Source: Minisyncoccota bacterium (GTDB taxonomy: Bacteria; Patescibacteriota; Minisyncoccia; UBA6257; GWB1-50-10). From it: DNA of 64,000 nucleotides. Position 1 is the stretch's first letter. Every line of letters starts with the position of its first letter. Below are positions 19,493 through 51,920 of this stretch, piece by piece. A program made the translations under genes and the position numbers. The notes beneath the pieces were generated by a model, which searched no databases, had not been told where the DNA came from, and was given only the letters and a program-made list of their open reading frames with translations. Location: assembly GCA_020059915.1 (NCBI GenBank), contig JAGVBB010000003.1:233625-297624 (forward strand), read 5' to 3'.

Positions 19493-19546
19493 ATACACAT
19501 CTTATTTGCAGACTTTAGAGATTTAGTCTGCAAATAAGATGTGTAT
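19493..19546. promoter_or_regulatory. perfect 22-bp-stem inverted repeat (10-nt loop) immediately upstream of the TTGACT-17-TAGAAT promoter of the 17097..19445 gene
   Basis: ATACACATCTTATTTGCAGACT / AGTCTGCAAATAAGATGTGTAT are exact reverse complements. Confidence 0.6.
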
Positions 19547-19590
19547 ATTCATTTTTAGTGTGCAATCATCAATCGTTAAGAATAATAAAA

Positions 19591-19617
19591 ATCCGCCCCA
19601 ATTGGGGCGGTTTCTAT
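19591..19617 (-). terminator. terminator hairpin GCCCCAATTGGGGC plus T-run
   Basis: 3' of the 19618..21294 CDS stop. Confidence 0.7.
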
Positions 19618-31946: not shown

Positions 31947-32318
31947 TTAAAAAGGACACCCAGCTTTCTTGGCAAGTACATACAATTCTTGTTGACCCGC
32001 GAGTTGCGTTCCATCAGGAAATGTCCATGTTGGATATCCCTGTACGCCGGCATCAATACATTCCTTTTCTCTCTCGGTGCATTCAACATATGTAATATTT
32101 TCAAATGCACTCCCGAATTCTTTTTTCTGATTTTGGCAATGTGGACACCAATATGTTCCATACATCACCACTCCTTTTTCTTTCAAGCAAAGTGATAGCG
32201 CTGTAACTTCAGCAGTCGGTGGTTCTGGTTGGGCGGAATACCACAACAACACAAAAAGACCGACTACAAATACTGTAAGTCCAATCGTAATAAATATATT
32301 TTTTTTCTTCTGATTCAT
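31947..32318 (-). CDS. membrane-anchored thioredoxin-like protein (CPHC active site)
   Basis: N-terminal TM, then the thioredoxin-fold motif YGTYWCPHCQNQKKEF. Confidence 0.75.
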   Translation of the reverse strand: MNQKKKNIFITIGLTVFVVGLFVLLWYSAQPEPPTAEVTALSLCLKEKGVVMYGTYWCPHCQNQKKEFGSAFENITYVECTEREKECIDAGVQGYPTWTFPDGTQLAGQQELYVLAKKAGCPF

Positions 32319-33087: not shown

Positions 33088-33918
33088 TTATGACAATAAG
33101 AAAATGAGTATTCCCATTCCAATCATAATTGCGCCATCAATAAAACGCAATCTACCTGATACACTCTTTCTCCATGTATCAAACTTATCTATCAGTGCCT
33201 TCTTTGAGGCAATACCAAGAATGATTATTAACGGCATAACAAATAACACATTATATAAGAAAAGATATCCAAACCCGCTCATAAATGTGCGTGAATCATG
33301 GAGAAGTCCAAGAATCATAAGATACGGCCCACCAGTACAAGGAAACTCACACAAACCAACAAATGCACCAAGTATGAATGCCCCAGGAATTGACGTCTTT
33401 TCCATGAGTCGAGCCATTGTCTTGTGTGACCCTTTAGGAATCTTTAACTTTATTGGAAAAGAAGGAATATAGGTATGTATGATATCCAACATACCTAGAA
33501 CAATAATGAGTATTGCTCCGATCTTCCCAACAAAATTTGGAATACTAAAGAATGACAAAACCCGTAAAATTCCTAATCCAATTCCTAGATAAACCAGGAA
33601 AACCCCGGAAATATATGCCCCACCTATGCCCAATATTTTTTTTCTATCTGCACCAAGACTAAACAAGAATGTGATAGTGAGTAATAAAATAGAAAATGCA
33701 CAAGGATTGATACTATCAACAATTGCCGAAACAACAACCAACGGAAGGAAAAATGAATGTGACGACCGAAATAGAGAAAACATTTCTTCCCCTACCGGCG
33801 TTGTCTTAACAACAATGACAGATATCAAAAATATAATAATAAGACCGATAAATATCCAAGAAAATAATTTTTTCATATATATAACTAACAATAGCGAACA
33901 GAAAATTTTATAGAACAA
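33088..33918 (-). CDS. ccdA: cytochrome c-type biogenesis / disulfide transfer membrane protein CcdA (DsbD_2 family)
   Basis: Paired TM cysteines (SINPCAFSILL and GLCEFPCTGGPYL) in a six-TM protein. The true start is probably MKKLF at about 33876. Confidence 0.75.
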   Translation of the reverse strand: MFYKIFCSLLLVIYMKKLFSWIFIGLIIIFLISVIVVKTTPVGEEMFSLFRSSHSFFLPLVVVSAIVDSINPCAFSILLLTITFLFSLGADRKKILGIGGAYISGVFLVYLGIGLGILRVLSFFSIPNFVGKIGAILIIVLGMLDIIHTYIPSFPIKLKIPKGSHKTMARLMEKTSIPGAFILGAFVGLCEFPCTGGPYLMILGLLHDSRTFMSGFGYLFLYNVLFVMPLIIILGIASKKALIDKFDTWRKSVSGRLRFIDGAIMIGMGILIFLLS

Positions 33919-33927
33919 ACACCTAAA

Positions 33928-34290
33928 TTAAATATATGAAGGACTCAATTCATTAAGAGAAAGCCATCTCCTATATTTTTGAAGAGAAGAACAAAAAAGA
34001 TTTTTCTGAGAAATAAAAAAAGTGACGGAGCTTGAATGAAAAACAGCTGTTTGTTCAACAAATAGCACTGTAATAAAAAGAAGGAAGAACAAGGAAATCG
34101 CCAATGAAAGTTGGCTAAATGCGTTTATGTGAAAATTTAGAAACAAGATACTCCCCACATTTGCCGGGCACCCTCCCCCTTGGAGTGTCTGCACCAAACA
34201 TCCTGCATGAGACACAAATGCAATAAGCGTTATTGCGCTAATCCCGACAAGCGCAAATATGATAATAAATGATAAAAATTTTCGAAACAT
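33928..34290 (-). CDS. small membrane protein with a CxxxxxxxxxC loop (possible thiol-redox partner)
   Basis: 120 aa, 3-4 TM helices, loop cysteines HAGCLVQTLQGGGCPAN. Confidence 0.4.
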   Translation of the reverse strand: MFRKFLSFIIIFALVGISAITLIAFVSHAGCLVQTLQGGGCPANVGSILFLNFHINAFSQLSLAISLFFLLFITVLFVEQTAVFHSSSVTFFISQKNLFCSSLQKYRRWLSLNELSPSYI

Positions 34291-34805: not shown

Positions 34806-35657
34806 TTAATTTTCTGGAGATAAAAGTAATGTTGCTCGTTCTGCGTGTATACCTTGTATTTCATCCCCAATACCTTGAACCTCTACAGCGTCTCCCACTT
34901 GAAAGTTTGAAATATCTGATGGTTCGTCAATAAATGGAACTGGAATCGTCACCAATGTTCCATTTTTATATGCCTCTGTCTCCTCTTTAAATTGAGTGTC
35001 ACTTTTTTTGCCTTGCTTTGAAAAAATGGTGTTTGAACTTATCTTTATTTGCACCCTTGTTCCATCACCTTTATCCACCGCAAATCTTGTATTATCATCT
35101 GCCTTCCAACCAACAACACCAACTACCTTTTTTGGTGCACCAATATTCGGAATATCAGAAAATTTTGGAGCAGAAGATGGATTATTAATAATGATCGAGG
35201 TCGCTAAGAATTCATTGTATTCCTCAACATTTTTATTAGCACGAATGGTCACAAAATCTCCAATAGTAATAGTATTACCCTCAACCCGTTCTTCTATAAA
35301 CGGTAATGGCGGTTCAGTTTTTGTATTATTAGTTTTTTGTGATTCCAAAAAGATCGCCTGTTCTTTTTCAAACAAAGAAATATCTTTTTGAATTTGTTTC
35401 TTAACAAGTGTTGTTGAATCAAATGTAACAGTTTTGAGTATTTTTTGGTCTTGTGAATTTCCCGCAACACCACGGAGTGTGATCGCATCAACAACAAGAA
35501 CATTTCCATTTTTTTGTTCAACTATTCCTGATATCACCACATTTCCAATATTACGAGGAGTATTCCCGGCAATATATGAAATGGCTATTGCAACCACAAT
35601 AAGAACAACTAAAGCAAGTATGGTGTATAATATTTTTTTCTTTTTTTCTTGTTCCAT
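34806..35657 (-). CDS. membrane-anchored extracellular protein, unknown function; last gene of the giant-protein operon
   Basis: N-terminal TM, 283 aa; starts 21 nt downstream of the 35679 giant gene stop. Confidence 0.5.
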   Translation of the reverse strand: MEQEKKKKILYTILALVVLIVVAIAISYIAGNTPRNIGNVVISGIVEQKNGNVLVVDAITLRGVAGNSQDQKILKTVTFDSTTLVKKQIQKDISLFEKEQAIFLESQKTNNTKTEPPLPFIEERVEGNTITIGDFVTIRANKNVEEYNEFLATSIIINNPSSAPKFSDIPNIGAPKKVVGVVGWKADDNTRFAVDKGDGTRVQIKISSNTIFSKQGKKSDTQFKEETEAYKNGTLVTIPVPFIDEPSDISNFQVGDAVEVQGIGDEIQGIHAERATLLLSPEN

Positions 35658-35678: not shown

Positions 35679-38600
35679 TTAATATGTTATTTTGACCATT
35701 CCATGACCAGAACGAACCCCTGCGGTATTTGTTTGGTTTGTTCCGGAATTATAACTTCCACCTCCACCGCCATATGTTGAGCTTCCGCTCCATGATGCCG
35801 AAGTTCCACCTCCAGAATAACCTCCCCCTGCTCCTGGTCCACCGAGCTGTCCACCACCACCGCCACCATATCCACCATAATTTTCTGTTGTGTAACAACT
35901 ATTTCCTGTTCCTCCTGCCCCACCATTTAAATAACTCTGTCCTCCATATGCGGTTGCGCAATGAGTTCCTCCATCCATTCCATTTGTACTAAATCCTCCT
36001 CCCGCTCCTCCTGCATAACTTTGGTTTGAACTACCACCTGATCCCGCAGACCCTCCAGTTCCAGTACCTGCACAACTAATCGTTACTCCAGAGGTTCCCG
36101 ACTGACCATTTCCCTCAGACGCTGTGCGCGTACATGATGTCCCATAACTTGTTGCTGGACCACCACCACCGCCACCTGCGATAATGAGTGGTACATTTCC
36201 TGTTTGTTTCACAACAAACGTTCCACCGCCACCACCATTTTCATTTCCGTGTGCTCCACCATTGCTACCTCCTTGTTGACCAACGAGAATTTTAATAACA
36301 TCTCCAGCAGTAAGAGATACTGTTCCCTTAACATATGCACCAAGTCCACCTGTTAAACTATTACTACCTGTACCACTTCCACCCTGTGCCCCCCACGCTT
36401 CAATAATATATGATCCCGTTGTCGAAGCAGTAAATGTTTGCAAACTTCCCGTTCTTCCCGTGGTAATATTATTAAATGTTACCGTTATTGGATTTGTTGG
36501 GGTTGCTGTTACCTCAGAACTCAATCCACTTTCCCCTGCTGGATTTACTGAAGAAACCTTATAGTAGTAAGCCATTACACTCAATCCAGAATCTACATAC
36601 GAAGTTGAGGTCACATTAGAGGTTAATAAAGAATATCCACTTCCCGATGTTGTGCTTCGATATACATTATATGAATATGCAAGCGCACAAGAATTTCCTG
36701 TTGGTGCAGTCCATGAAATAGTATTTGAAAGAGCACCAGGCGTTGCTGTTGCACCCGTTGGCGCACTAGGAGCAGAAAGTCCATTTGGACAAGATGCTGC
36801 GTAACAAACCAATTCTGTATTTGATCCAATATTTTGTGTCGATGTCGCCATACCCCACCCCGCAGGACAGGAAAGTGATTGATTTGCTCCTTTAGCACGC
36901 AATGTAAATGATTGAAACGGAGCATCGGTGCGATAACAAATCTGCTCGTTTACATCAACCCCATCTATAGTCACCGTACTTGTTGGTGCAGAACTCCATC
37001 CTGATGGGCAAGAAGGGGCGGGAGAAGAAATTATTTTATAGCAGGCACTATCATAGGTCGTTTGCGAGCTATATCTCTTTCGCGTGTAATTTTGGTTTGT
37101 ATATTTTGTATATCCTGTTGGACAGGTAATACTATTTGAAGCAGCATTTGCATTGTATACAAAAGTATCAGATACCCCAGAATTTGTATTATTTATACAT
37201 GCACCTGTATATGCCTGATATCCAGAAATTGGAGCATTATAATATACCGCAGAGGTATTACTCCAATTGGTAAATCCACTCGGACAACTCACTACTGAGG
37301 TTGGATTTCCCAATCCCGTATATGATTCCCAAATAAATGATGGAGGATTTCCTTTATAACACGCACCTGAATAAACCTGATCAATGCCTGCTGGGCTATA
37401 AACATACTGTCCTACCCATCGTGTATATCCTGTTGGGCAGGTCACGCTCGTTGCTCCCGAATATGATTTCCATGTAAATACATCATTTGTTGCACTTGCG
37501 TTATAACACGCTCCCGAATATGACCAATAATCATATGTATAGTCATATTGCGAACACGTAGGCTCATCAACACAATATTCATACCATGCTGGTCTCCATC
37601 GCGCATAACTGTTATCGTACCAGTTAGTAAGTCCTGTTGGGCAGGTTTGCGTACTAGCGGTATATGCACTCCAAGAAAATGACGGTAATGTCGTTCCCTT
37701 ATAACACACACCGTCATATTTGCTAGTACTATTGTCCGGATCTACATCCCACCATGTGTTAACCCATCGTGTATATCCTGTTGGGCAGGTCACACTTGAT
37801 GGTGATGGTGATCGCCACTTAAATAAATCGTTTGATGCTGATGTTGGATAACACGCACCTGTATATGCAACATATCCACTCTCACTTGAACTATAATATG
37901 CATTAGAACTCCACCACTTGGTATATCCCTCTGGACAAGTTATGTAGGTATCAGGACTATAATTGTTTACTAATTGCCAAGTAAATGATCTTGGGTCCGA
38001 GCTCCCCGATCGCAAATACATAACATTGTCACTTGCACCTAACGCCACCACCTGTGCGTTATATATCTGCCATGTTCCATTACCACTCGCATCCACTGTG
38101 AGAACATACCCCGGCGTTGCCGATGTCCCCAACTGGAATCCATTCATTTTTATTGTCCCATACACATCAAGTTTTGCTGTTGGGGTTGAGGTTCCAATAC
38201 CAACATTCCCCGTATTAATGGAATATAAATTTGAACCTGATGCATTCCAGAGTGAATATGCAGAAGAATCTGCATATGATTTTGTTGCAACATGTCCCAC
38301 CGCTGTTGGTGATCCAACAATGACAGCCCCATCAAACTGTCCCGCGCCAACAACATCAAGAGTATATGCGGGCGTTGTTGTTCCAATACCAATGTTCCCC
38401 GCATTGGTCATAGTCAATCGATATGCCGAAGTGTTGTTATTATAAAAATGCAAAGCACTTCCTGCAGAAACCAATTCCCATGATGATCCCGTTGAAAGCA
38501 AGCGAATGGAACCACTACTCCCCCCTGTTTCAAATGTCGCTAATACTCCCGATGGTGGTGCAAGATTATATAAATGAAATGGATATGTTGGATTGGTTGT

Positions 38601-39047
38601 ACCAATACCAACGTTTGTCCCGTTATTAAACAAAAGAGAGGTTGCAACCCAACTCGAACCACTATGACGAAGTGTTTGCCCCGATGTACCACTCGCTATT
38701 CCCCCACCAACCATTGAATCAACATAACTTTTTGTCACTGCGTGCGTTACTCCTGTTGGGGACCCAACAAACACCGGAGAAGAAAAATATCCCTTCCCTG
38801 TTACTTGCAATTTATACGACGGATTGGATGTATATATTCCAATATTTCCCGTGGAATTAATTACAAATAAATCATTTGATCCAAAGATAATATCATTTCC
38901 ACTTCGTTCATTTAATTTCAAAACCGCACCAGTGTTTTCAATTGAAGAAGTATTTTGATCAATAGTGATATATTGTGCGGACACAAACTCCCCCACAAAG
39001 AATGTGAGAATAATTATTATGAAGATGATAAATGATTTATATTTCAT
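35679..39047 (-). CDS. giant secreted modular surface protein 1 (tail-fibre-like repeats, two-Cys tandem repeats, Fn3, ALK/LTK-type glycine-rich domain)
   Basis: Signal peptide, N-terminal NIGIGTTTPAYTLDV / ATKSYADS repeats, about 9 repeats of V.CPTGYT.W...Y.GACY, an Fn3 (YNVYRSTTSGSGYSL), and a C-terminal WGAQGGSGTG...ILVGQQGG...GGGGGTFVV...IIAGGGGGG glycine-rich domain. Confidence 0.8.
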   Translation of the reverse strand: MKYKSFIIFIIIILTFFVGEFVSAQYITIDQNTSSIENTGAVLKLNERSGNDIIFGSNDLFVINSTGNIGIYTSNPSYKLQVTGKGYFSSPVFVGSPTGVTHAVTKSYVDSMVGGGIASGTSGQTLRHSGSSWVATSLLFNNGTNVGIGTTNPTYPFHLYNLAPPSGVLATFETGGSSGSIRLLSTGSSWELVSAGSALHFYNNNTSAYRLTMTNAGNIGIGTTTPAYTLDVVGAGQFDGAVIVGSPTAVGHVATKSYADSSAYSLWNASGSNLYSINTGNVGIGTSTPTAKLDVYGTIKMNGFQLGTSATPGYVLTVDASGNGTWQIYNAQVVALGASDNVMYLRSGSSDPRSFTWQLVNNYSPDTYITCPEGYTKWWSSNAYYSSSESGYVAYTGACYPTSASNDLFKWRSPSPSSVTCPTGYTRWVNTWWDVDPDNSTSKYDGVCYKGTTLPSFSWSAYTASTQTCPTGLTNWYDNSYARWRPAWYEYCVDEPTCSQYDYTYDYWSYSGACYNASATNDVFTWKSYSGATSVTCPTGYTRWVGQYVYSPAGIDQVYSGACYKGNPPSFIWESYTGLGNPTSVVSCPSGFTNWSNTSAVYYNAPISGYQAYTGACINNTNSGVSDTFVYNANAASNSITCPTGYTKYTNQNYTRKRYSSQTTYDSACYKIISSPAPSCPSGWSSAPTSTVTIDGVDVNEQICYRTDAPFQSFTLRAKGANQSLSCPAGWGMATSTQNIGSNTELVCYAASCPNGLSAPSAPTGATATPGALSNTISWTAPTGNSCALAYSYNVYRSTTSGSGYSLLTSNVTSTSYVDSGLSVMAYYYKVSSVNPAGESGLSSEVTATPTNPITVTFNNITTGRTGSLQTFTASTTGSYIIEAWGAQGGSGTGSNSLTGGLGAYVKGTVSLTAGDVIKILVGQQGGSNGGAHGNENGGGGGTFVVKQTGNVPLIIAGGGGGGPATSYGTSCTRTASEGNGQSGTSGVTISCAGTGTGGSAGSGGSSNQSYAGGAGGGFSTNGMDGGTHCATAYGGQSYLNGGAGGTGNSCYTTENYGGYGGGGGGQLGGPGAGGGYSGGGTSASWSGSSTYGGGGGSYNSGTNQTNTAGVRSGHGMVKITY
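36830..38000 (-). repeat. intragenic tandem array of ~135-nt units encoding the two-Cys repeat (CPTGYTxW...GACY)
   Basis: Recurring near-identical DNA words such as ggtatatcctgttgggcaggt at 37425, 37780 and others. Confidence 0.7.
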
Positions 39048-39050
39048 AGT

Positions 39051-42000
39051 TTATTTTATCCACAGCCGTCCATATCCTCTTGACGATGCTGAACCACATC
39101 CATTTACTGGATACGAATCATATCCTGTATATGCCTGATATGGATATTGATAGTGTGGACCATTACATATACCACTTGGATTTCTTCCTCCAACTGCTGG
39201 ACTGTTCCCTGTATACCCCGTACCAACTCCAGAACAGTAATTATCTCCACAAGCAGCTAAACAATCTGGATTTGTTGGATAACTTGCATAGTTGGTCCAA
39301 CTTACCCACCATCCACGTTGCGTTGTATCTCTATCGTATGAGTTCCAAGTCCAGTTTGTACGATCATGGAATGTGGTTGCGTTATATGGCGAACAATAAA
39401 ATCTAAATATTCCCAAACTTCCCGAGGCGGTTCGAATTTGATTTATAACAGTATCAGAAAACTTCCCCTTATCATCTTGCGTCCATGTTGATTTTGTACT
39501 CCACCCACTCTGTTCTGTTGTTTGTCTATGATTTGCATTTGCTGAATCAATTCCTGCAACAAGTGTCCAACCCCCTCCATCGGTGGTCATATCACAATAT
39601 GCTCGAAATGCATCACTTGTTGAACCACCATTTGGATCTATCCAATAAGTACCATCAGTCTTTGATGGGAATGCAGTCTTAATCACCTTGCAAGAAATTC
39701 CAGCAAAAGTCTGTGAGGATCCATCTGGGTCTGAAAGCGGAACAGCACTCACCTCACTACTTTGTGCACTTTCACCACCACTGTTTACTGAAGAAATTTT
39801 GTAATAATATGTCGGATAAGTTCCACTCCCTAAAATCTTAAATTCTATTTCTGCAATTCCACCATTGTTATATCCAGTACCAGAGACCGCCACAAGTTTG
39901 TAATAACGATATGCAGTAGTGTTTGCACTTAAGTCACCAAAATAACTTGGTTGTGCAACTCCACCCGGCGCAGTATATACCGCAGAAATATCAGTCCACG
40001 TTGAATTATTTGTTGATCCTCGCCACTGATAATTTCCCGTTTGTGCACCACCGCCACCCCACGTATATCGAGCCTCTGTAATAGTAATTGCAGAACCAAA
40101 ATCAAATGTTATTGATTGTCCAGAAAATGAAGTTGTTTGGAGATATGCGATAGTCCCCGTATTTCCATCAATCATGTTTGTATTTGGATACCCAGAATAA
40201 CTCCATAAATTATCTGAGAGAAGTGTAATAAGTGATGTTCTATTTCCAATGCTTTGTGTTTGAGTATATGTTGATGTTGCGCTTGTGGTGATTGAAGTAT
40301 CTGAATACGTTGTACCTGCAATACCACTCGTAACAAGTGAGAATCCAGATCCAGAGGTTAAACTTCTATATATATTATATGTTTCTGGTTGCGAGCATAC
40401 TCCTCCACCACTTGGTGCTGTCCAAGAAAGATTTATACTTTGACTGGCTCCGGTAGCGGATGGACTAGTTGGAACATCCGGTGCAGTCATCCCCTCCGAG
40501 CAAGCAAAATAGCAGGCAAGTTCCGTGTTCCCTGCAACGTTGGTTGCGGACATTGCTGGAGCCCACGCAGCACTTGGACAAGAAATAGATTGCGAAGATC
40601 CTTTCTTTGTTATCTGCATTGTTGTCACCGCCGAATCAGTTTTGTAACAAATTTTCTCTTTTACATCATATCCATTGGTAAGTACTGTCTGACAAGTTGT
40701 TTCACTCCATCCAGATGGGCAGGATGGACACACTGTTGCATCAAACGTCTTGTAACAGGTTGCGTCCCATGCTTGGACACTAGATCCTCGTTTGTATGCA
40801 AATTGTCCGCTTTTATATTTTGTATATCCTGTTGGGCAAGTTACCGTGTCCGACGCCACCATCGTCTCAATATTAAATGCATCAGCACCAGTTGCAGTGT
40901 TACTTATACATGCTGCAGTATATGCATCATAACTATTTCCAGTTCTCCATTTTGCATTTGCATCATACCACTTGGTATATCCTGTTGGGCAGGTATTATT
41001 TGCCATATTCCCACCAGTGTATGCATCCCAAATAAATGATGTCGGATTCCCTTTATAACAAACTCCAGAATAATACTGGTTATTTCCTGGACCATATACA
41101 ATGTCACTTGGATACCACTTAGTGTATCCTGTTGGGCAGGTAAGAGAGGTTGGAGAGGTTGATTTCCATGGAAAATAGTCATTTGTTGCACTTGTGTTGT
41201 AACACGCTCCAACATAGCTATAGTATCCAGATCCAGAAGAATACCATTGTGCATTTGAATCAAACCATTTTGTATATCCCGTTGGGCAGGTAAGAGAGGT
41301 TGGCGTTCCAAGTCCTGTGTATGATTCCCAATTAAACGCTGTTGTTGGAGATCCTTTGTAACAAACGCCACTATAGTATGCCTGCGAAGAATAAATACCA
41401 TAACCATAATACGAGGTATTAACCCACCTCGTATATCCTGTTGGACATACTACCGAATTTGGAGATGTCATTGTCTTCCATGAAAAAATATCAGTTGTTG
41501 TATCCGCGTTATAACACGCCCCCTCATACGACACATTTCCCGAAAGGTCCGCATACCAATATGCATAACTCTGATCAAACCATTTTGTATATCCCGTTGG
41601 GCAGGTTACTGACGTGGGACTATTTGTTTCCCATGTAAATGAATTCATAATAAGTGTTATTGGGTTTCTTAATTTCATAACACTCGTTCCATATGCATTC
41701 CCAACATTTGCAATTGACTGCCATGTACCAACACCACTTGCATTTGCAATTAAAATATTTCCTGCAGTTGCGGAGGTACCCAACTGAAATGAGGACATTT
41801 TCACCGTTCCCATAACATCAAGTTTTGCCCCTGGTGAATTTGTTCCAATGCCAATGTTTCCTGATGGAACGGTATATGTGTTAGTACTTGATGACACCCA
41901 CATTGAAACTGCAAGTGCATCAACATATGCCTTGCTCGCCGCATGCCCCGCCGCGGTTGTGGTACTTATAAGAACAGGAGAAGAAAAATTTCCCGTTCCC

Positions 42001-42713
42001 GCAACATGGAGTAAAGACGCAGGAGATTGTGTTCCAATACCAACATTTCCTGCATTTGTTATTGTCGTACGATATTGTGATGTATTGTCATTATAAAATT
42101 GCAGACCGGATCCCGTCGCACCAATTTGCCACGATGATCCTGTTGATCCAATTTTTATAAATGAAGCGGATGTTCCTGTTTGAAAACGAGAAAGCACGGC
42201 AGATGTTCCGCTATATACATGCAGTGGGGCTGTTGGGTTTGTTGTTCCAACACCAATATTTGTTCCATTGTTGTAAAGTGTTGAATCACCAAACCATCCA
42301 GATCCAGTATTTCTTAATGTCTGCCCAGATGTTCCTGAACCAACTCCTCCTGCAATAGTAAAGTCTGCATAGGATTTTGTTGAAATATCAGAAGCGATTT
42401 GCGGTTCTCCAATGGTGAGTGGATTTACAAAATATCCAGCACCCTGCACATGCAATGGGTATTGAGGATTTGTTGTGTTTATACCAATCTTATCCCCTGA
42501 AGTATTTATATATATGATTCCGTCTCCTACTGAAATATCATATGCACTCCGTGCATTCAAATACAATGGTGCATACCACGATTCAACAGAATTACTATCA
42601 ATGGTAACGCTTTGTGCATACACTGATGAAAACGAAAACACAAAACACAACATAAATATGCTCAAAAATAAAATTCTATATGTACTTATATGCGTTTGTA
42701 TGTTCATTTTCAT
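39051..42713 (-). CDS. giant secreted modular surface protein 2 (tail-fibre-like repeats, two-Cys tandem repeats, Fn3, discoidin-like domain, C-terminal fibrinogen-related domain)
   Basis: Likely start MKMNIQTH... (signal peptide); the ORF track start at 42752 overlaps the upstream gene. The C-terminus DGTYWIDPNGGSTSDAFRAYCDMTTDGGGWTLV is a strong FReD signature. The mid-region ITFDFGSAITITEARY...YQWRGSTNNSTWTDIS is discoidin/F5-8C-like. Confidence 0.8.
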   Translation of the reverse strand: MKMNIQTHISTYRILFLSIFMLCFVFSFSSVYAQSVTIDSNSVESWYAPLYLNARSAYDISVGDGIIYINTSGDKIGINTTNPQYPLHVQGAGYFVNPLTIGEPQIASDISTKSYADFTIAGGVGSGTSGQTLRNTGSGWFGDSTLYNNGTNIGVGTTNPTAPLHVYSGTSAVLSRFQTGTSASFIKIGSTGSSWQIGATGSGLQFYNDNTSQYRTTITNAGNVGIGTQSPASLLHVAGTGNFSSPVLISTTTAAGHAASKAYVDALAVSMWVSSSTNTYTVPSGNIGIGTNSPGAKLDVMGTVKMSSFQLGTSATAGNILIANASGVGTWQSIANVGNAYGTSVMKLRNPITLIMNSFTWETNSPTSVTCPTGYTKWFDQSYAYWYADLSGNVSYEGACYNADTTTDIFSWKTMTSPNSVVCPTGYTRWVNTSYYGYGIYSSQAYYSGVCYKGSPTTAFNWESYTGLGTPTSLTCPTGYTKWFDSNAQWYSSGSGYYSYVGACYNTSATNDYFPWKSTSPTSLTCPTGYTKWYPSDIVYGPGNNQYYSGVCYKGNPTSFIWDAYTGGNMANNTCPTGYTKWYDANAKWRTGNSYDAYTAACISNTATGADAFNIETMVASDTVTCPTGYTKYKSGQFAYKRGSSVQAWDATCYKTFDATVCPSCPSGWSETTCQTVLTNGYDVKEKICYKTDSAVTTMQITKKGSSQSISCPSAAWAPAMSATNVAGNTELACYFACSEGMTAPDVPTSPSATGASQSINLSWTAPSGGGVCSQPETYNIYRSLTSGSGFSLVTSGIAGTTYSDTSITTSATSTYTQTQSIGNRTSLITLLSDNLWSYSGYPNTNMIDGNTGTIAYLQTTSFSGQSITFDFGSAITITEARYTWGGGGAQTGNYQWRGSTNNSTWTDISAVYTAPGGVAQPSYFGDLSANTTAYRYYKLVAVSGTGYNNGGIAEIEFKILGSGTYPTYYYKISSVNSGGESAQSSEVSAVPLSDPDGSSQTFAGISCKVIKTAFPSKTDGTYWIDPNGGSTSDAFRAYCDMTTDGGGWTLVAGIDSANANHRQTTEQSGWSTKSTWTQDDKGKFSDTVINQIRTASGSLGIFRFYCSPYNATTFHDRTNWTWNSYDRDTTQRGWWVSWTNYASYPTNPDCLAACGDNYCSGVGTGYTGNSPAVGGRNPSGICNGPHYQYPYQAYTGYDSYPVNGCGSASSRGYGRLWIK
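40500..41630 (-). repeat. intragenic tandem array encoding two-Cys repeats (paralogous to 36830-38000 and 44820-45900)
   Basis: ggtatatcctgttgggcaggt / ggtatatcccgttgggcaggt words at about 40975, 41125, 41275, 41440 and 41590. Confidence 0.7.
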
Positions 42714-42723: not shown

Positions 42724-45700
42724 TTATCTTGTACATGTAATGTTGACCGCATAGTCAGTTGAGTTCTGATTATTACACTCGCTCAAATATCCAGAAGGAG
42801 GTGTTGGTGCAGCAGCACATTGTGTTGGCTGGGAACCAAAACTCCAATTTCCTGATTGTCCATCATACAATGTTACATTTGAAGAGGTACTCCAAGCACA
42901 ATCAATTGCTGTTCCAGAACCAATCGCATATCCATTTGGTTGTGAACCCCAAACACCATTTCCAATACTATGATATGCGGCATAAGAGACGCCGGAATTT
43001 GCTACTGTACATGAAGAATACCCAAGCTGTTGTCTGATCTGCGTCAATACATTGGAATCCCACTCACTATTCATCATACGAGCAATAAGTTTGTGTTGTG
43101 GATTTGACCAACTCGCAAGACGCGTGAATTGTGCATCCACACAAATTTCCTGGTCTCCATTATCAGTGACGCTACTACAATATATTCCATACTCACAAGG
43201 ATTTGATCCATATAAGAGTGGTGGAATTGAATTATATCCTTGCTTGAACAAAGTCAACGCAGGCGCTGCGGGTATTGCACCAAATTCTGCCGTCTGTGTA
43301 CTTTCTCCAAATCCGTTAATCGCAGAAATTTTATAATAGTATGTTGTACCATTGGTGACTCCTGTATCTAAATAATAATTTCCTGTTGATGTTGCATAAA
43401 GTGAAAAACCACTTCCCGACGTTAAGCTTCTAAAAATTTTGAAATAGCTTGGAATTGCTGTACAACTAATACCTCTACTCCATGAAAGAGCAACACTATT
43501 ATTTCCTGCGGTTGATGTTGCGGAAGATGGTACAGCTGGAGCCTGAGAAACTGCACTCGTACATTTTGTAACAACAACCTGTCCCGCACCCGATCTATTC
43601 CCCGCAATATTTGATTGATTTATTCCATCATTATATGATCCACCGCCACCTCCACCATATGTACTTCCCCAACTTCCACCTGCTCCACCACCAGAATATC
43701 CTCCTCCTCCACCGGCAGTAAGTCCACCTGCTCCACCACCGCCAAATCCACCAACATTGCCACCCCATCCGGACCATACGCTTGCTCCATTATCTCCACC
43801 ATATCCTCCATTTAAGAATTTTGAACCACCATAGTCATACCACGCAGAACTTCCACCTCCATCAACATTAGTAGTTCCATCTGTTCTCCATCCCGCTCCT
43901 CCTCCAGAATAATTTGCACGACCGCCACCCATTCCATTTGTTCCTCCAGCACCCCCACCAGATGATTGCCCAGCAGTTCCATTAATAGTTGTCTGTCCAC
44001 CACTTGCTGACCCACCCCCATTTGTACCAGGCGCGCCCCCACCACCACCGGCAACAATAATCGGCAAATTATTTGAATCAACTACAAAGGTTCCCCCTCC
44101 CCCTCCATTTCCTCCATTATATTGGACACCATTGTTTGCCGGGCTACCTTGTTGTCCAACAAGTATTGAAATTACCTCACCCATTCTTAAATACACATCG
44201 CCCTGCATTTTTGCTCCAAAACCACCCGTGTAACTCATTGAACCCCCCTGTGCTCCATACGCAGCTATTGTATAAACCCCAGTTTCAGGAACAGTCCATT
44301 TCTGTGTTCCTGTTGCAACATCAAAAAATGATGAGTTCTCATCCCAGGAAGTTGAGTATGCAGAACGACATGCAGATATCGTTGGACCAGTTCTTCCAGT
44401 TTGTGAACAATTAGTAAATGTATGTGTAGTAAATGAATATAAAACATTCGGTGTCGTGACACTAAATTCATTTGAGGTAGATCCTTCTCCGGCTATATTC
44501 GTACCGGAAACCTTATAATAGTAAGTGGTATTTTGTGTTGTTGTCGCGTCGGTAAAAGTAGTCGCTTCAACTCCTGAGGCAATAAGGGAATACCCACTCC
44601 CTGAGGTAAGGCTTCTATATATATTATAAGTATCTGTTGCAGTACATTCAGTTGCACTTGGTGCTGTCCACGAAAGAGCAACTGAAATACCAGAAAGGCT
44701 TCCCGTAAGTGAGGTTGGTGTTAGTGGTAAAGAAAAACTTGAGCAGGCAACATAACAGGCACGCTCTGTATTTCCATTCACATTTGCTGTTGTACCCGCA
44801 CTTGAAAGTCCTGCGGGACAAGAAATTGATTGGTTTGATCCCTTCTTTTGCACTGTAATTGTTTGGATTGGTCCGCCTTGCTTATAACAAACACGTTCTC
44901 CATAATCGCCAAGTGATCCAGAAACAGTGTTACATGATCCAGCCGTCCATCCAGTTGGACACGACTGACAAGTTGCGGCAGGAATTTTATAACACGCACT
45001 ACTGTACGCTGCTTGACCTGAACCGCGGTAGGTGTAATACGAAGAATTCCCCTGCCATTTTGTATATCCGGATGGACAAGCAACAGCATCGGATCCCGAT
45101 GTGGAAAAATATGGAAATGCATCTGCTGCTGTTGCTGAAGAGTTTACGCAGTATCCATTATATGATTGATATGAACTACTATAGGTATAATATTTTGCAT
45201 ATGTTGTGTCATACCAATTTGTGTATCCAGATGGACAGGTCACAGTAGTTGGTGCGTATCCAGTATAAATCTCCCATGGAAGAGAGGATGGTGATCCCTT
45301 GTAGCAAACTCCAGTGTAATAAGTGACCGACCCTGGACCATATGCATAATTTGTTGGGTACCATTTTGTATATCCAGATGGACAGGTCACTGATGCTGGC
45401 GAGGTAGATTTCCATTTGAATACATCCGTGCTTGCAGATGCGTTATAGCACGACCCCGTATAGTTATAATAACCACCCGTTGATGAATACCATTGTGCAT
45501 TTGCATGATACCAAGCGGTATATCCACTTGGACAAGAAATAAAGGTGGTTGGATCTCCACTTCCCGTGTATGTCTCCCACGTAAACGATGATGGTGACCC
45601 CTTGTAGCAAGCACCATTATACCCATTATAAGTAGAATATATTCCCTTTCCTGGATATGATGCATTTGTCCAAGTAGTGTATCCAGATGGACAGGTCACT

Positions 45701-46923
45701 GATGCCGGAGATGAGTATGCTTTCCAAGTGAAGACATCGTCTATTAAGGAGTTTTGATAACAAGTACCAAAATAAGAAGGGTTTCCACTTTCGTCTCCAT
45801 ACCAGTAGGCGTTACCGTGTGACCACAATGAGTACCCCGTAGGACAGGTAAAATAAGTTGAGATAGCACTTGTACGACTTTCAAAAGCAAATGTTTTGGG
45901 ATCTCCGATTGACGAATGTAAAGTTAAAATGGCACTTCCTGGTTTTGAACCACTGGTACCTGGAAGAACTTGCCACGTTCCGACGCCACTTGCATCCGTA
46001 GTAAGAGCATAACCCGCCGTTGTTGAAGTTCCAATTTGAATTCCTGTTGCGCGAACTTTTCCAACTACCTCAAGTTTTGTTGTTGGGTTAGTAATACCAA
46101 TTCCGACGTTCCCAGAGTTCCCAGAGTATAAAGATGTTGATGTTGCGGTCCACACAGAACCGACCAACGAATCAACATATCCTTTTGTCGCAGCGTTATT
46201 TGCAGCAGTTGGTGTTCCTACAGAAAGTGTAGAAAAACTTCCCGTGCCGGCCACATCAAGCAACGACGATGGCGTTGTTGTACCAATCCCAATATTTCCA
46301 GAGTTTGCCATCGTCATCCGATACTGTAGATTGTTCCTATTATAAAATTGGAGCCCACTTGCTGTCGTCCCAAAATTCCAAGAAGCATCAGACCCAATTA
46401 AGTTTAATGTTCCCGCCGTACTTCCACTTTGGAAATAGGTAACAATATTGCCAGATGGTGCAGAATTATATACATCAAATTTTATTGTTGGACTTATCCC
46501 TATACCAACCGCACCACCATTATTGATAATTAAAGAAGATGCAACCCATCCAGATCCATTATTATGCAATGTCTGGTTTGCACTTCCCGATCCAACACCT
46601 CCACCGAGAATGGAATCAACATATCCTTTTGTGGCAGCATTGCTCGCAGCAGTTGGAGATCCCGCACCAGTGCTTGTGGAAAAAACAGCACTCCCAACCA
46701 CGTGTAACGGATATGTTGGTACAAGGGTTCCAATCCCTATATATCCATTTCCACGAGAAATAAACAAATCACCGTTTCCGATGTTTATGTTATATCCACT
46801 CGTCTTATTGAATCCAAGTCCCGATGCATCACTTTGAATATCGGTGTCGCCAAAAAAAATACTTGCACTTACTACCAATGGAAGTAGACATAAACCTATG
46901 GTTAGTATGAGAAAGCGTTTCAT
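42724..46923 (-). CDS. giant secreted modular surface protein 3 (tail-fibre-like repeats, two-Cys tandem repeats, Fn3, ALK/LTK-type glycine-rich domain, second Fn3, Cys-rich C-terminal domain)
   Basis: Signal peptide MKRFLILTIGLCLLPLVVSAS. Same module order as protein 1, plus an extra C-terminal ~190-aa domain with 8 Cys. First gene of a four-gene minus-strand operon. Confidence 0.8.
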   Translation of the reverse strand: MKRFLILTIGLCLLPLVVSASIFFGDTDIQSDASGLGFNKTSGYNINIGNGDLFISRGNGYIGIGTLVPTYPLHVVGSAVFSTSTGAGSPTAASNAATKGYVDSILGGGVGSGSANQTLHNNGSGWVASSLIINNGGAVGIGISPTIKFDVYNSAPSGNIVTYFQSGSTAGTLNLIGSDASWNFGTTASGLQFYNRNNLQYRMTMANSGNIGIGTTTPSSLLDVAGTGSFSTLSVGTPTAANNAATKGYVDSLVGSVWTATSTSLYSGNSGNVGIGITNPTTKLEVVGKVRATGIQIGTSTTAGYALTTDASGVGTWQVLPGTSGSKPGSAILTLHSSIGDPKTFAFESRTSAISTYFTCPTGYSLWSHGNAYWYGDESGNPSYFGTCYQNSLIDDVFTWKAYSSPASVTCPSGYTTWTNASYPGKGIYSTYNGYNGACYKGSPSSFTWETYTGSGDPTTFISCPSGYTAWYHANAQWYSSTGGYYNYTGSCYNASASTDVFKWKSTSPASVTCPSGYTKWYPTNYAYGPGSVTYYTGVCYKGSPSSLPWEIYTGYAPTTVTCPSGYTNWYDTTYAKYYTYSSSYQSYNGYCVNSSATAADAFPYFSTSGSDAVACPSGYTKWQGNSSYYTYRGSGQAAYSSACYKIPAATCQSCPTGWTAGSCNTVSGSLGDYGERVCYKQGGPIQTITVQKKGSNQSISCPAGLSSAGTTANVNGNTERACYVACSSFSLPLTPTSLTGSLSGISVALSWTAPSATECTATDTYNIYRSLTSGSGYSLIASGVEATTFTDATTTQNTTYYYKVSGTNIAGEGSTSNEFSVTTPNVLYSFTTHTFTNCSQTGRTGPTISACRSAYSTSWDENSSFFDVATGTQKWTVPETGVYTIAAYGAQGGSMSYTGGFGAKMQGDVYLRMGEVISILVGQQGSPANNGVQYNGGNGGGGGTFVVDSNNLPIIVAGGGGGAPGTNGGGSASGGQTTINGTAGQSSGGGAGGTNGMGGGRANYSGGGAGWRTDGTTNVDGGGSSAWYDYGGSKFLNGGYGGDNGASVWSGWGGNVGGFGGGGAGGLTAGGGGGYSGGGAGGSWGSTYGGGGGGSYNDGINQSNIAGNRSGAGQVVVTKCTSAVSQAPAVPSSATSTAGNNSVALSWSRGISCTAIPSYFKIFRSLTSGSGFSLYATSTGNYYLDTGVTNGTTYYYKISAINGFGESTQTAEFGAIPAAPALTLFKQGYNSIPPLLYGSNPCEYGIYCSSVTDNGDQEICVDAQFTRLASWSNPQHKLIARMMNSEWDSNVLTQIRQQLGYSSCTVANSGVSYAAYHSIGNGVWGSQPNGYAIGSGTAIDCAWSTSSNVTLYDGQSGNWSFGSQPTQCAAAPTPPSGYLSECNNQNSTDYAVNITCTR
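44820..45900 (-). repeat. intragenic tandem array encoding two-Cys repeats
   Basis: Repeated tgtatatccagatggacaggtcac-type words. Confidence 0.7.
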
Positions 46924-48190: not shown

Positions 48191-50641
48191 TTATTTACAT
48201 AAATAGGTGCCACCAATACTTCCAGAGATATTTCCACTATAGTTCACAAAAGCAGTACATTCTACTGCGGAAGTGAAAACACGAAAGTCTGTTCCAATTT
48301 GACAAACTGTTGTCTGCCCCACATCACCACATGGAAAAATTTGAGAACCGGCCGTACAACCAACATTGGAACCAGAGTAACAAGTTGATCCACCTGGCAT
48401 TCGATACCAAGCATAAAAAAGACTTCCAGGAGCATATTGTGTTCCAGCAGACGAAGTTATAGCTCCATCACAATTATAATCAAAACTTCCATCACCACGG
48501 TTTGTAGAGAATGAAGAAGCTTGTCCAGGTCGCGCGTTTGCATTTGAATCATAACAGTCAGAATTATTTACAACATATCCAGCTGGTGGTGTTGGACTTG
48601 CTGAAGTAGTCGAAACTGAAGGATTTCCATATCCATCGCCATCTACATCACGATAGTAGGTATATGAGGGGGTGACGGTAAGCGTTGTGTTATATGTTTG
48701 TGATTCTGAACTTCCAGTAAACCCAATATTACTCACAGACATAGTAACAGAAAGATTGTATGTTCCCGGTGTTGCGCCCGCAGGAATAATAAAATCAACT
48801 GGGTGTGAGGCAGTGCCCCCCGCGGCTACATAATAACTACTCGGTCCACAATTCGGAAAGTTGTAACACGTCGTTCCCGAAGGAAGTCCACTAATTGAAG
48901 AGACAGTAAGTGGATATGAAACTGGATCACCACTCAAATCAGAACGTGTATGTGTAAACCCACCACTAACAGTTCCACCAACCGGAGCACTTCCCCCTGA
49001 AAATGAACCGGAAATACAATTTCCATAATTCGCACCCGCGTTCCCATCATTACAGTCTCTTGAATCGGTTGTGTATCCAGATGGAGCGGAATTTCCATAA
49101 CAAACACTTGTTGCCGCATCGGAATACGGATAACTTAATGTTGCCTTTCCACCATATCCATCACCATCAGCGTCCGGATAAAATGTTCCATTTCTCCACT
49201 TAGAAGCATCGGACGACGCACAATCTGAATTGTTATTTGAACACCAACCAGTTGTTATACAATCCCATGCTCCTCCATCATACCCAATACAAAATGGTTG
49301 AAGACTTCCAGCTCCATATCCATCATGATCCGAATCTAAATATTTTTGAACAATTCGCCAAACACCAGCGGACGTATCATCACAATCTGTCCCTAAAGAT
49401 GGATAGGTTGTGTGATATGGGCACGAAGTTGCGCAATATGACGAACCACTCCCAACAGTATATCCATCGGTATCATTATCTGTATAGCAGGTTCTATATG
49501 AAGAAACTGAATAATTATAATCATCGCAATCACTTCCCGGAGAAGCAGAAACACCAGGATTTGAAGAGCCTCCACAAAGATATCCATAATTACTCCCATA
49601 CACTCCATCTCCATCATTATCTAAATACCCTCCCCAATCTTGATAAGTCCAATAATCACTATCATTACAATCGCTTCCTGGACTGGTATTGCCAGCTGGG
49701 AGTGACGTACCAGAACAAATTGAACTTTGACTCGGACTATTATACCCATCCCCATCATTATCTGCATATCCACTCAAATATTGCCATACAGTTGCCGACC
49801 CATCATTACAATCAATATTAAACGAAGTAAGTGCTGACTTTCTTACTCTTCCTCCAGCACTACTCGTATATTGAGTGCTATTTGATGGGTATCCATCACT
49901 GTCTGCATCGCTCATATATAAATCACCCTGTTGGATACTTCCTCCAGATCCCAACACAATTTTTCCTCCGTTGCTCAACGTGATTGACTTCCCCGCATTC
50001 CAAACAAACGTACCATTTACTGTGAGTGTCGCATTTGCATCAATAGCAACATTTCCGTTATCAACCCCATCAACACCACTGATGGTACACGACGCACCAG
50101 CATTGTTCGTCGTCATACTCCAATTTCCTGAAAGGGCTATACCGCACGCATCTGACCATGCAATATCAAAAAAATCTGAATTACCCGCATTGTCTTCTGC
50201 AACAAAACGAGTGGTATATCGCGTGTCATGTGTATCTTCAACAATCCAACTTCCCCTCCAAATATTTGATCCCTCATTATTAAGCGCTACCTCTTGTGTT
50301 TTTGTATCAGTAGTAATAACTGCTTTTACAGACTTAATACCAGACTCTGCAGAAACTTCAATCATAAACGTCTGCATGTCCCCCAAATGAACATCCGGAG
50401 GATCTATCTCCCCTTTTATAAATTTGATAGCATTCTCATCTGCAGATGCAACACTAAATTCATATATACCCTGTGGCAATGTCCACTCTTTTCCATCTTT
50501 ATTCACCAAAATGCGATCTTTTTGTTCAATAGCACGCTTTCCAAAAAAAGAAGGGAGAGAAAGAAATGCAATCACAAAAACCGCGAAAAAGAACACGATG
50601 AGTCCTGCAATATGCGGTTTTTCCTGCACGAATTTTTTCAT
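48191..50641 (-). CDS. membrane-anchored surface protein with MopE-like Cys/Asp repeats (DxDxDGYG calcium-binding-type motifs)
   Basis: 816 aa with an N-terminal TM and about 8 repeats of C.D.D....PG..E.CDG.DNDGDGY (DADSDGYPS, DNDGDGYNS, DVDGDGYGNPS). Confidence 0.65.
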   Translation of the reverse strand: MKKFVQEKPHIAGLIVFFFAVFVIAFLSLPSFFGKRAIEQKDRILVNKDGKEWTLPQGIYEFSVASADENAIKFIKGEIDPPDVHLGDMQTFMIEVSAESGIKSVKAVITTDTKTQEVALNNEGSNIWRGSWIVEDTHDTRYTTRFVAEDNAGNSDFFDIAWSDACGIALSGNWSMTTNNAGASCTISGVDGVDNGNVAIDANATLTVNGTFVWNAGKSITLSNGGKIVLGSGGSIQQGDLYMSDADSDGYPSNSTQYTSSAGGRVRKSALTSFNIDCNDGSATVWQYLSGYADNDGDGYNSPSQSSICSGTSLPAGNTSPGSDCNDSDYWTYQDWGGYLDNDGDGVYGSNYGYLCGGSSNPGVSASPGSDCDDYNYSVSSYRTCYTDNDTDGYTVGSGSSYCATSCPYHTTYPSLGTDCDDTSAGVWRIVQKYLDSDHDGYGAGSLQPFCIGYDGGAWDCITTGWCSNNNSDCASSDASKWRNGTFYPDADGDGYGGKATLSYPYSDAATSVCYGNSAPSGYTTDSRDCNDGNAGANYGNCISGSFSGGSAPVGGTVSGGFTHTRSDLSGDPVSYPLTVSSISGLPSGTTCYNFPNCGPSSYYVAAGGTASHPVDFIIPAGATPGTYNLSVTMSVSNIGFTGSSESQTYNTTLTVTPSYTYYRDVDGDGYGNPSVSTTSASPTPPAGYVVNNSDCYDSNANARPGQASSFSTNRGDGSFDYNCDGAITSSAGTQYAPGSLFYAWYRMPGGSTCYSGSNVGCTAGSQIFPCGDVGQTTVCQIGTDFRVFTSAVECTAFVNYSGNISGSIGGTYLCK

Positions 50642-50647: not shown

Positions 50648-51889
50648 TTATTTATTATTTTTGTAATATGTATCCAGATTCAAACCCTCCCAATCGCTAC
50701 TTGAATAATTAGTCCAATCTTTTGCATCAAATCGTGGAGCAGTTAGACGATAACTTATTTCTAATTTTGAATTTTGAATTTCTAATTTTGAATTAGGAAT
50801 ACCGAATATCACAATCTTTTTGTTTTGTTCGTCTTTTTGATACCATACTTTGCCATCAAAGTTTGGAGTAAGAAGCACAGACACATGCTTCAATCCATTT
50901 TTTTCTACATCAATAGTATGTGCAAATAACCACACATCACTTCCTTTTTCTTTATTGTTTAAATCAATAGTATATGAATATAAATTCCCATTCAAAGTTG
51001 CAACAAGTGTAGCAACGTCACTGAGCTCTTCTTTCACACCACCAACCATTCCAGGGTTGTATGTTGCATATCGCTTCCCTTCTATGGTGTAAACTGGATC
51101 AAATGTCACCCCATCAATCTTGTTTGCAATAATATCTGCCGCCGCTGTTCCCTCATCTGCATAGATTTGTCCAGCAACTTGAAGTTTATATGTTGGATTC
51201 GTTATACCAATACCTACCCTTCCAGAACTATCTACATTTAAACGCCATGCACCAGTATGCCAAAAGCCAAATGCAGAGGTCCCAGTGTTATCTAAGGATC
51301 CTATAAACCTGTCTCCACTCCCGGAAGAGTCTGTAATCCAAATTCCAGCACTTCCATTAGAACCCTGTCTTATTCTAATTCTATCTGCAATATCTAATTT
51401 ATATCCAGGAGTTACTCCAATACCAACACTTCCATCTCCCGCAAAAACAACTGGATATGATGTATTCCCAAACATTCTAACTCCATTCCCTCCAGCAAAT
51501 TGCATTTCAATAAAACCATCGGTTCTGTTTATTTGGCTGGCATTCATGGTAAAGGCGCCACCGGCACCAACCTGAAGAACACCCGCAATAGTCGTGGTTC
51601 CTACAACATATAATGGTGAAGTTGGATTTGTTGTTCCAATACCAACATAGGTTGCCGCTTGTGGATAAATCTTTGTACTTGTTGCAGTCCATCCCCCACC
51701 CCCAATCGCTGATGCGCTATCAAGCGTTGAGCTGTCTGGAAATCGAATAACTTTTCCTGGCGAAAGAATAATATCTTTATCAATAGTAAGTGAGTTCTGT
51801 GCATATACAACGGCAACACCACTCAAGATCACGACACCCAAAAATAAGAGCGCTCCCGAAAACAATTTTTTGCGCAAAAAATGTTTCAT
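50648..51889 (-). CDS. secreted tail-fibre-like repeat protein with a C-terminal domain shared with 55488..59504
   Basis: Likely start MKHFLRKKLF (signal peptide); the ORF track start 51913 uses GTG. Contains VGIGTTNPTSPLYVVG, VGIGVTPGYKLDI and VGIGITNPTYKLQVAG repeats. C-terminal DPVYTIEGKRYATYNPGMVGGVKEE...EKGSDVWLF matches the C-terminus of the 1338-aa protein. Confidence 0.7.
   Translation of the reverse strand: MKHFLRKKLFSGALLFLGVVILSGVAVVYAQNSLTIDKDIILSPGKVIRFPDSSTLDSASAIGGGGWTATSTKIYPQAATYVGIGTTNPTSPLYVVGTTTIAGVLQVGAGGAFTMNASQINRTDGFIEMQFAGGNGVRMFGNTSYPVVFAGDGSVGIGVTPGYKLDIADRIRIRQGSNGSAGIWITDSSGSGDRFIGSLDNTGTSAFGFWHTGAWRLNVDSSGRVGIGITNPTYKLQVAGQIYADEGTAAADIIANKIDGVTFDPVYTIEGKRYATYNPGMVGGVKEELSDVATLVATLNGNLYSYTIDLNNKEKGSDVWLFAHTIDVEKNGLKHVSVLLTPNFDGKVWYQKDEQNKKIVIFGIPNSKLEIQNSKLEISYRLTAPRFDAKDWTNYSSSDWEGLNLDTYYKNNK
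50758..50799. repeat. 21-nt tandem duplication inside the CDS (encodes NSKLEIQ NSKLEIS) with similarity to repeat-element flanks
   Basis: tttctaattttgaatt ttgaa tttctaattttgaatt. Confidence 0.5.
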
Positions 51890-51920
51890 ATCTATAGAAT
51901 TAGTATAACACACTGCAATA

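Follow-up and report, generated by a model that had tools for sequence, protein, structure and literature searches.

The closest described counterparts of the proteins considered here are the mosaic adhesive trimer (MAT) fibres of Bdellovibrio bacteriovorus, chimeric fibres in which conserved shafts carry diverse binding tips (Caulton et al. 2024, PMC10769870). We present here a conserved set of three adjacent genes, A, B and C, located in 64,000 nucleotides of contig JAGVBB010000003.1 from a Minisyncoccota bacterium (this whole stretch is called the window below); they encode tail-fibre-like, tip-swapping surface proteins that resemble those chimeric prey-recognition fibres, with an array of tandem two-cysteine repeats in the middle of each protein. 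We think that the repeat, which had no name before, represents an extracellular domain of about 50 residues with a very narrow distribution, and we favour, with modest confidence, the hypothesis that the array is a fixed-length, disulfide-stapled stalk presenting exchangeable tips on a tail-fibre-like surface protein.

Other extracellular proteins are useful for comparison. In ficolins, intelectins and tenascin-type oligomeric lectins, an oligomerising stalk (collagen-like, or made of EGF/FN3 arrays) presents fibrinogen-like or intelectin-like heads. The Sushi (CCP) domain, of about 60 residues, has four invariant cysteines that pair 1-3 and 2-4. Finally, in the streptococcal alpha C/Rib and the Mycoplasma Vlp/Vsa proteins, the repeats are nearly identical in DNA and their number varies between strains.

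A narrowly distributed two-cysteine repeat

The three genes are the following:

35679-39047, minus strand: gene A, 1122 aa
39051-42752, minus strand: gene B, 1233 aa
42724-46923, minus strand: gene C, 1399 aa

Their products correspond to the hypothetical proteins RJQ26060, RJQ26061 and RJQ26062 of contig QZJB01000066 (GCA_003599675.1, a Candidatus Parcubacteria metagenome-assembled genome, or MAG), and all three begin with signal-peptide-like sequences. With its annotated start, B shares 29 nt with the end of C (42724-42752) and acquires a long pre-signal extension; translation from an internal methionine (MKMNIQTH..., roughly 42707-42713) yields an ordinary signal peptide and no overlap, while the start called by JGI lies 43 aa further inside the gene and truncates the signal peptide.

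The repeat unit follows the consensus F.W...(S/T)(V/L)TCP(T/S)GYT.W...Y.GxCY. Each protein contains six canonical units and two degenerate short ones (units 7-8), in arrays at 36801-38003 (A), 40509-41669 (B) and 44752-45912 (C); the bit scores listed come from a profile hidden Markov model (HMM):

37038-38003, minus strand: A, canonical units 1-6 (aa 349-670; 27-51 bits, B-only HMM)
37848-38003, 37701-37847, 37503-37700, 37356-37502, 37194-37355 and 37038-37193, minus strand: units A1, A2, A3, A4, A5 and A6
36801-37037, minus strand: A, degenerate units 7-8 (aa 671-749; at most 6 bits)
40752-41669, minus strand: B, canonical units 1-6 (aa 362-667)
41511-41669, 41358-41510, 41199-41357, 41055-41198, 40905-41054 and 40752-40904, minus strand: units B1, B2, B3, B4, B5 and B6
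40509-40751, minus strand: B, degenerate units 7-8 (aa 668-748; unit 7 with four cysteines, CxxCPSGW...C...CY)
44989-45912, minus strand: C, canonical units 1-6 (aa 338-645; 34-59 bits, B-only HMM)
45757-45912, 45604-45756, 45445-45603, 45301-45444, 45145-45300 and 44989-45144, minus strand: units C1, C2, C3, C4, C5 and C6
44752-44988, minus strand: C, degenerate units 7-8 (aa 646-724)

The HMM built from the six canonical units of B alone detects the six of A and the six of C (27-59 bits, independent E-values 5e-8 to 5e-18), and no further match among 320 six-frame segments of the window. The tandem repeat that a first-pass annotation of this DNA had described in all three proteins is therefore real, and lies essentially where it had been placed. 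Its anatomy needs adjustment, since there are not about nine units of about 45 residues per protein but eight (6+2), with a period of about 50. Canonical units measure 48-54 aa, except A3, which reaches 66 aa owing to an insertion with two extra cysteines; units 7-8 have 35-45 aa, retain only a CP(S/A)G(W/L)...CY skeleton and score weakly (at most 8 bits against the unit HMM, at most 5.5 bits with the B-only HMM). Similarly, the two cysteines (C1 and C2), described as about 28 residues apart, have that spacing in the canonical units (26-29 residues) but not in A3 (45) or in units 7-8 (21-24). All units have in common the conserved aromatic positions F, W, Y, W, Y, Y, and the arrays are 17-19% aromatic and 7-11% aliphatic, against 9-12% and about 17% in the rest of the same proteins. 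A super-repeat of two units (about 100 aa), suggested by the alternating linkers CYKGxP.../CYNxSATND..., is not established (same-parity units 47.7% vs 41.6%, p = 0.07).

That the repeat lies outside any named family, as had been supposed from the letters alone, is borne out by Pfam, NCBIfam and PDB profile searches and by Foldseek (see below). Whole proteins gave Pfam and NCBIfam matches in the flanking domains only and none in the repeat; 17 single units gave only spurious Pfam matches at E up to 10; and when array and unit profiles were run against PDB sequences, the sole matches (E about 0.5) were to the 9-residue motif, in the RhTx toxin and in FmlH. When a three-paralogue profile was compared exhaustively, with HMMER, to 1.84 billion cluster representatives, no more than five proteins came out, each with an E-value below 1e-30. 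Four of them (P0001-P0004) are full-length relatives, and the fifth (P0005), 585 aa long, is encoded in a Candidatus Altiarchaeota MAG (locus L002, 6780-8537, JAWAEV010000006), with two canonical and two short cysteine units and GNVGIGTTxP fibre motifs as in the A/B/C family. Since its contig also carries an archaeal DUF2226 gene and a T2SSE ATPase, it looks genuinely archaeal, and the presence of cysteine units in P0005 indicates that the module occurs in both domains of life.

A word-indexed protein search with the B array alone found no match, and with the three-paralogue profile it found P0005 only, missing close relatives that the exhaustive search had returned. In GTDB species genomes, IMG/VR and JGI metagenomes, scanning brought up nothing beyond the P0005 contig, an unrelated Omnitrophota protein and, from JGI, one already known contig; the viral contigs contained no relative. 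The Omnitrophota protein (4230 aa; locus L003, 1530-14222, JBAXRK010000002) was considered as a homologue at 28% identity and rejected, since hhalign aligns only 11 columns, around the SVTCPTGYT motif; it is absent from the exhaustive HMMER matches. It contains 61 copies of a perfectly periodic 56-aa, four-cysteine repeat (C..CPTGYTGTL..C..G.F..L.G.C), which is Sushi-like yet has no Pfam Sushi match, and a glycoside-hydrolase-like C-terminal part.

A fixed array between a shaft and exchanged tips

On both sides of the arrays, recognisable domains are present:

41721-42281, minus strand: N-terminal beta-helix shaft of B, aa 158-344 (phmmer against PDB: 8OND Bd2133, E 3.5e-6; 8OJN Bd3182, E 1e-3)
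39960-40178, minus strand: F5/8-type-C-like galactose-binding domain of B, aa 859-931, inserted after the first FN3
39054-39740, minus strand: fibrinogen/intelectin-like GGGWT tip of B, aa 1005-1233 (NCBIfam GGGWT_bact 6.6e-20, Pfam COLFI, PDB intelectin-1 6e-7)
43564-44442, minus strand: ALK/LTK-like glycine-rich domain of C, aa 828-1120 (PDB ALK extracellular domain, E 5e-12)
35682-36485, minus strand: ALK/LTK-like glycine-rich domain of A, aa 855-1122 (PDB ALK extracellular domain, E 2.5e-4)

Upstream of the array, the trimeric beta-helix of the MAT fibres is matched by residues 158-296 (against 8OND) and 216-344 of B and by residues 191-235 of C (8OJN, E 4e-5). Downstream of the array comes an FN3 domain (PDB 3MPC match) and then the tips. 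The glycine-rich domains of A and C match the TNF-like/glycine-rich region of human ALK/LTK (PDB 7NX3, 7N00 and others), and the phage family PHROG 22713 at E 1e-38 to 1e-40; a domain familiar mainly from metazoan receptors thus has relatives here in a bacterium and in phages. Past this domain, protein C continues with a second FN3 and a Cys-rich terminal domain. With a beta-helix upstream and FN3 plus tips downstream, the array appears to form the central part of a secreted fibre or adhesin of modular build.

Two related genomes (L004 and L007) have the same three-gene cluster, with the same order and neighbours as in the window. These three complete clusters, together with P0004, provide ten full-length proteins from four genomes, and the unit count is 6+2, at matching positions, in all ten. 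At each unit position, orthologues are 51-100% identical and paralogues 33-72%, and among the three complete clusters the nearest relative of every unit is its own orthologue, neither a paralogue nor an adjacent unit. Position-matched units from different paralogues of the window are on average 49% identical, vs 35% for other pairs; the array is therefore older than the triplication of the gene and has not been homogenised since.

In five of six orthologue comparisons, the canonical array is also the region with the lowest nonsynonymous divergence (dN, 0.10-0.22) and the lowest ratio of nonsynonymous to synonymous divergence (dN/dS, 0.045-0.13; Nei-Gojobori; dS is saturated, and the ratios are approximate). 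B units 2-3 are an extreme case, with 94-100% protein identity at about 84% DNA identity. Recent recombination between genomes was considered for these two units and rejected in favour of purifying selection, since their DNA identity is only about 84% and is even along the gene.

Sequence variation is concentrated instead at the C-termini. The Cys-rich tip of C in the window (205 aa; 42727-43341, aa 1195-1399), for which no family match was found, has a counterpart with 78.5% identity at the end of the L007 B-type protein (9329-9944), while the C-type protein of L007 has a different Cys-rich tip; tip cassettes thus move between paralogue positions. In L004, protein B is without the F5/8 insert and shares only about the first 100 residues of the FReD region. 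The junctions fall directly after the conserved end of FN3 (YYYK.S.VN..GES), not within the cysteine repeats. P0004 (1105 aa, on a 5-kb Logan contig) is a mosaic of another kind, A-like over aa 1-120 and 690-1105 and C-like (up to 78%) over units 1-6; this pattern comes either from an ancient recombination between paralogues or from a faulty assembly. Chimeric events in this family (the tip swaps and, if genuine, P0004) are rare and ancient.

These data bear directly on the earlier suggestion that the repeats are substrates for recombination or gene conversion, and hence for repeat-number or antigenic variation. It had been based on DNA units said to be near-identical and to share long identical words at more than ten positions. 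The units are in fact 48-73% identical in DNA (mean about 60%), and Tandem Repeats Finder (TRF) detects no DNA tandem repeat across the arrays, its sole match being the Gly-rich part of gene C. As for the words, the TCPTGYT-encoding 21-mer GGTATATCCTGTTGGGCAGGT recurs nine times at up to three mismatches (0 expected), but only one of these copies is exact (the other eight have 1-3 mismatches), and all are confined to genes A and B, gene C using other codons for its CPSGYT motif (CCAGATGGACAGGT). The longest exact words join units two apart, in frame:

37414-37445, plus strand, again at 37762-37793: 32 nt in gene A, units A4/A2, 348 nt apart, encoding ..VTCPTGYTRWV
41259-41291, plus strand, again at 41574-41606: 33 nt in gene B, units B3/B1, 315 nt apart

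Each pair lies inside one gene, and only short words encoding TCPTGYT are common.

These words, the recurrent 21-mer and the mosaic P0004, with its A-type ends and C-type block of units 1-6, are what can be said for variation by recombination. We nevertheless consider this hypothesis very improbable, given the divergence of the DNA units, the constant 6+2 count, the grouping of units by orthologue everywhere (hence no concerted evolution) and a DNA identity between genomes that is even along the arrays (61-85%), with no conversion tracts. An array with the lowest dN/dS in five of six comparisons contradicts the signature of antigenic variation, and the variation that is observed sits at the C-terminal tips, with junctions past FN3. 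At the between-genome scale the hypothesis is largely refuted by these sequences, which point to purifying selection on a fixed array rather than to repeat-number or antigenic variation; what survives of it is that chimeric genes do exist in the family. More generally, tandem protein repeats do not imply recombination or antigenic variation when their DNA units have diverged and the array is fixed.

Predicted fold, cysteines and neighbouring genes

The array is predicted to be all-beta. AlphaFold2 models units B1-B4 with a mean predicted local distance difference test (pLDDT) of 82.2 and a predicted template modelling score (pTM) of 0.79, from a 15-row alignment of orthologues and register-shifted copies; for the full 387-aa B array the values are 77 and 0.70. 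In both models the canonical units 1-6 have an identical strand pattern: a strand on F.W, a short turn or 3-10 helix before C1, one or two strands after CPTGY(T)xW, and a last strand ending at GxCY. The high single-chain pTM suggests that the array has a defined shape and would fold on its own. Foldseek with these models found nothing significant in the PDB (best E 0.26 and 0.026, TM-score at most 0.22) or in BFVD (best E 1.0). The C-terminal Cys/His-rich domain of PCSK9 and the NC1 domain of collagen IV, which top both Foldseek lists, are likewise tandem disulfide-containing all-beta extracellular modules, but their matches are insignificant (E 0.026-0.3, probability at most 0.13, TM-score at most 0.22, rmsd 13-24 A) and indicate no fold relationship.

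One could argue that the array belongs to the trimeric fibre shaft, with three chains intertwined and cysteines perhaps bonded between chains, since the N-terminal region is homologous to the intertwined trimeric MAT beta-helix and the array comes straight after it. We think this quite improbable: a segment able to fold only as an intertwined trimer would seldom be predicted so confidently as a single chain, the FN3 and intelectin-like domains downstream are autonomous folds, and cysteines lost or gained in pairs inside a unit fit intrachain bonds. A monomeric array therefore seems to us the better assumption.

The cysteine data are as follows. All 60 canonical units of the ten relatives contain C1 and C2 without exception, and the insertion in A-type unit 3 adds two cysteines at once. 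The orthologues of unit 7 have four (Ca-xx-Cb...Cc...Cd), of which Cb and Cd correspond to C1 and C2; in protein A of the window Ca and Cc are both missing, and this joint loss suggests Ca-Cc and Cb-Cd pairs. Export signals together with conserved, even-numbered and co-varying cysteines are what was found here, as in disulfide-bonded extracellular domains. One intradomain disulfide per unit between C1 and C2, already supposed in the first-pass annotation, is thus plausible and, as an inference, well supported by the signal peptides, the invariance of C1 and C2, the pairwise gain and loss of the additional cysteines and the nearby redox genes described next.

Downstream of the fibre genes are three genes that are syntenic in the two related genomes and that could, judging from their sequences, form an extracytoplasmic thiol-disulfide system:

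31947-32318, minus strand: membrane-anchored thioredoxin-like protein with a WCPHC motif (from sequence; the syntenic L007 gene has a faint Thioredoxin Pfam mark), a possible extracytoplasmic thiol-disulfide oxidoreductase
33088-33918, minus strand: DsbD_TM/CcdA-like membrane protein (Pfam DsbD_TM 4.2e-7), downstream of the three fibre genes in all three genomes
33928-34290: small Cys-containing membrane protein

Directly downstream of gene A, 34806-35657 encodes a 283-aa protein with an N-terminal transmembrane segment and no family match, whose position is kept in both related genomes (284-285 aa); it might be an accessory or anchor for the fibres. Other neighbours in the window fit a bacterium of the candidate phyla radiation (CPR): SecDF, Tgt/QueA, UvrABC, DUF5671 and PEP-utilising enzymes. 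The window is also rich in unannotated putative surface proteins. FN3/Por_Secre_tail proteins lie at 17097-21294, and the large open reading frames at 48191-50641, 50648-51913, 52840-54273 and 55488-59504 (816, 421, 477 and 1338 aa) have zero Pfam matches, the 816-aa one containing repeated D.DGDGY and Cys-rich segments.

Stalk or binding surface, and the comparison with known systems

We propose that each unit would be an all-beta (about four strands), aromatic-rich domain with an intradomain disulfide from C1 (in TCPTGYT) to C2 (in GxCY), and that six such domains plus two shortened, more cysteine-rich derivatives would make up an array of fixed length. Placed between a phage-tail-fibre-like (MAT-like) beta-helix shaft and the FN3 that carries interchangeable C-terminal tips (ALK-like glycine-rich; F5/8 plus intelectin/fibrinogen-like; Cys-rich), this array may serve as a disulfide-stapled stalk or spacer that projects and orients the binding tips of a secreted surface fibre, a putative adhesin with which the Parcubacteria cell would contact another cell or a surface. 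The stalk is suggested by the exchange of tips between genomes while the array stays put, which fits the chimeric-tip logic of MAT (PMC10769870).

The main alternative is that the array itself does the binding, as a multivalent lectin-like or protein-binding module in which the aromatic, Tyr/Ser/Gly/Asn-rich loops between C1 and C2 would be paralogue-specific recognition surfaces. These loops differ most among paralogues A, B and C and are yet highly conserved between orthologues; this, the high aromatic content of the array, the near-invariance of B units 2-3 at the protein level, and a dN/dS that is not only the lowest in most comparisons but also below that of most tip domains, all speak for such a role. 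On the other hand, nothing resembling known carbohydrate-binding modules or lectins came out of the profile and Foldseek searches, the proteins already have tips with recognisable binding domains (intelectin-like, F5/8, ALK-GlyR-like), and the shared aromatics are more simply explained as the core of a 50-residue domain with almost no aliphatics. We regard a binding array as rather unlikely, while taking it seriously.

Our preference for the stalk should be read with several points in mind that weigh against it. Strong conservation combined with paralogue-specific Tyr/Ser/Gly-rich loops would fit a binding surface equally well or better. No cell-anchoring motif was identified; the family is tiny (about 11 proteins) and its alignments are shallow; and both the disulfides and the stalk role are inferred. 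As to the models, they are of monomers and so do not show whether the array, like the N-terminal shaft, which is probably trimeric, takes part in a trimer.

In a bolder reading, a new fold and family, limited to a few Parcubacteria and one Altiarchaeota archaeon and thus common to bacteria and archaea, would form the strongly conserved, fixed-length segment of a MAT-like host-recognition fibre, and its paralogue-specific Tyr/Ser/Gly-rich loops would participate directly in recognising the partner cell. We consider this unlikely; if true, the module would have reached Altiarchaeota, or come from there, by exchange of genes between a CPR episymbiont and its archaeal neighbour or host. Whatever its role, the domain that forms the best-conserved part of these proteins has neither a name in the databases nor a resembling solved structure. 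Partner recognition and attachment in CPR/Patescibacteria are largely obscure beyond type IV pili, and defining this domain provides a handle for structural work and for the annotation of such fibres, with relevance to CPR cell-cell recognition and to structural genomics.

Compared with known systems, the array departs from contingency repeats. The alpha C/Rib and Vlp/Vsa proteins are also secreted surface proteins with tandem repeats in mid-protein; but none of the features of such repeats (near-identical DNA units, a copy number that differs among related genomes, concerted evolution or diversifying selection) was found here, where the DNA units are 48-73% identical, their number is fixed and the array appears to be under purifying selection. 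Sushi domains (CCP/SCR, PF00084) and the Omnitrophota repeat are likewise small (50-60 aa), extracellular, beta-rich tandem units that serve as beads-on-a-string stalks and have C-P-x-G-Y at one cysteine. They differ by having four cysteines instead of the exactly two of the canonical units, and the Sushi profile matched neither the whole proteins nor the 17 single units, even at E 10. With ficolins, intelectins and tenascin-type lectins the likeness is one of functional analogy only: protein B ends in such a head, and there is no homology to the cysteine repeat.

MAT remains the nearest system. The N-terminal shafts of B and C are detectably homologous to the beta-helix of Bd2133 and Bd3182, and in both systems long secreted fibres combine conserved shafts with exchangeable C-terminal binding tips. 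No Pfam match to Peptidase_S74 was found in A, B or C, which would place them in the non-S74 subgroup of MAT. There are differences as well. The MAT paper (PMC10769870) reports no cysteine or disulfide repeat, and neither of the words 'cysteine' and 'disulfide' appears in it, whereas in A, B and C the shaft is followed by the 6+2 cysteine array, FN3 and eukaryote-like tips (ALK GlyR-like, intelectin-like); and the host is a CPR bacterium, not a predator. What is new here is the domain family, in proteins whose architecture is of a known kind.

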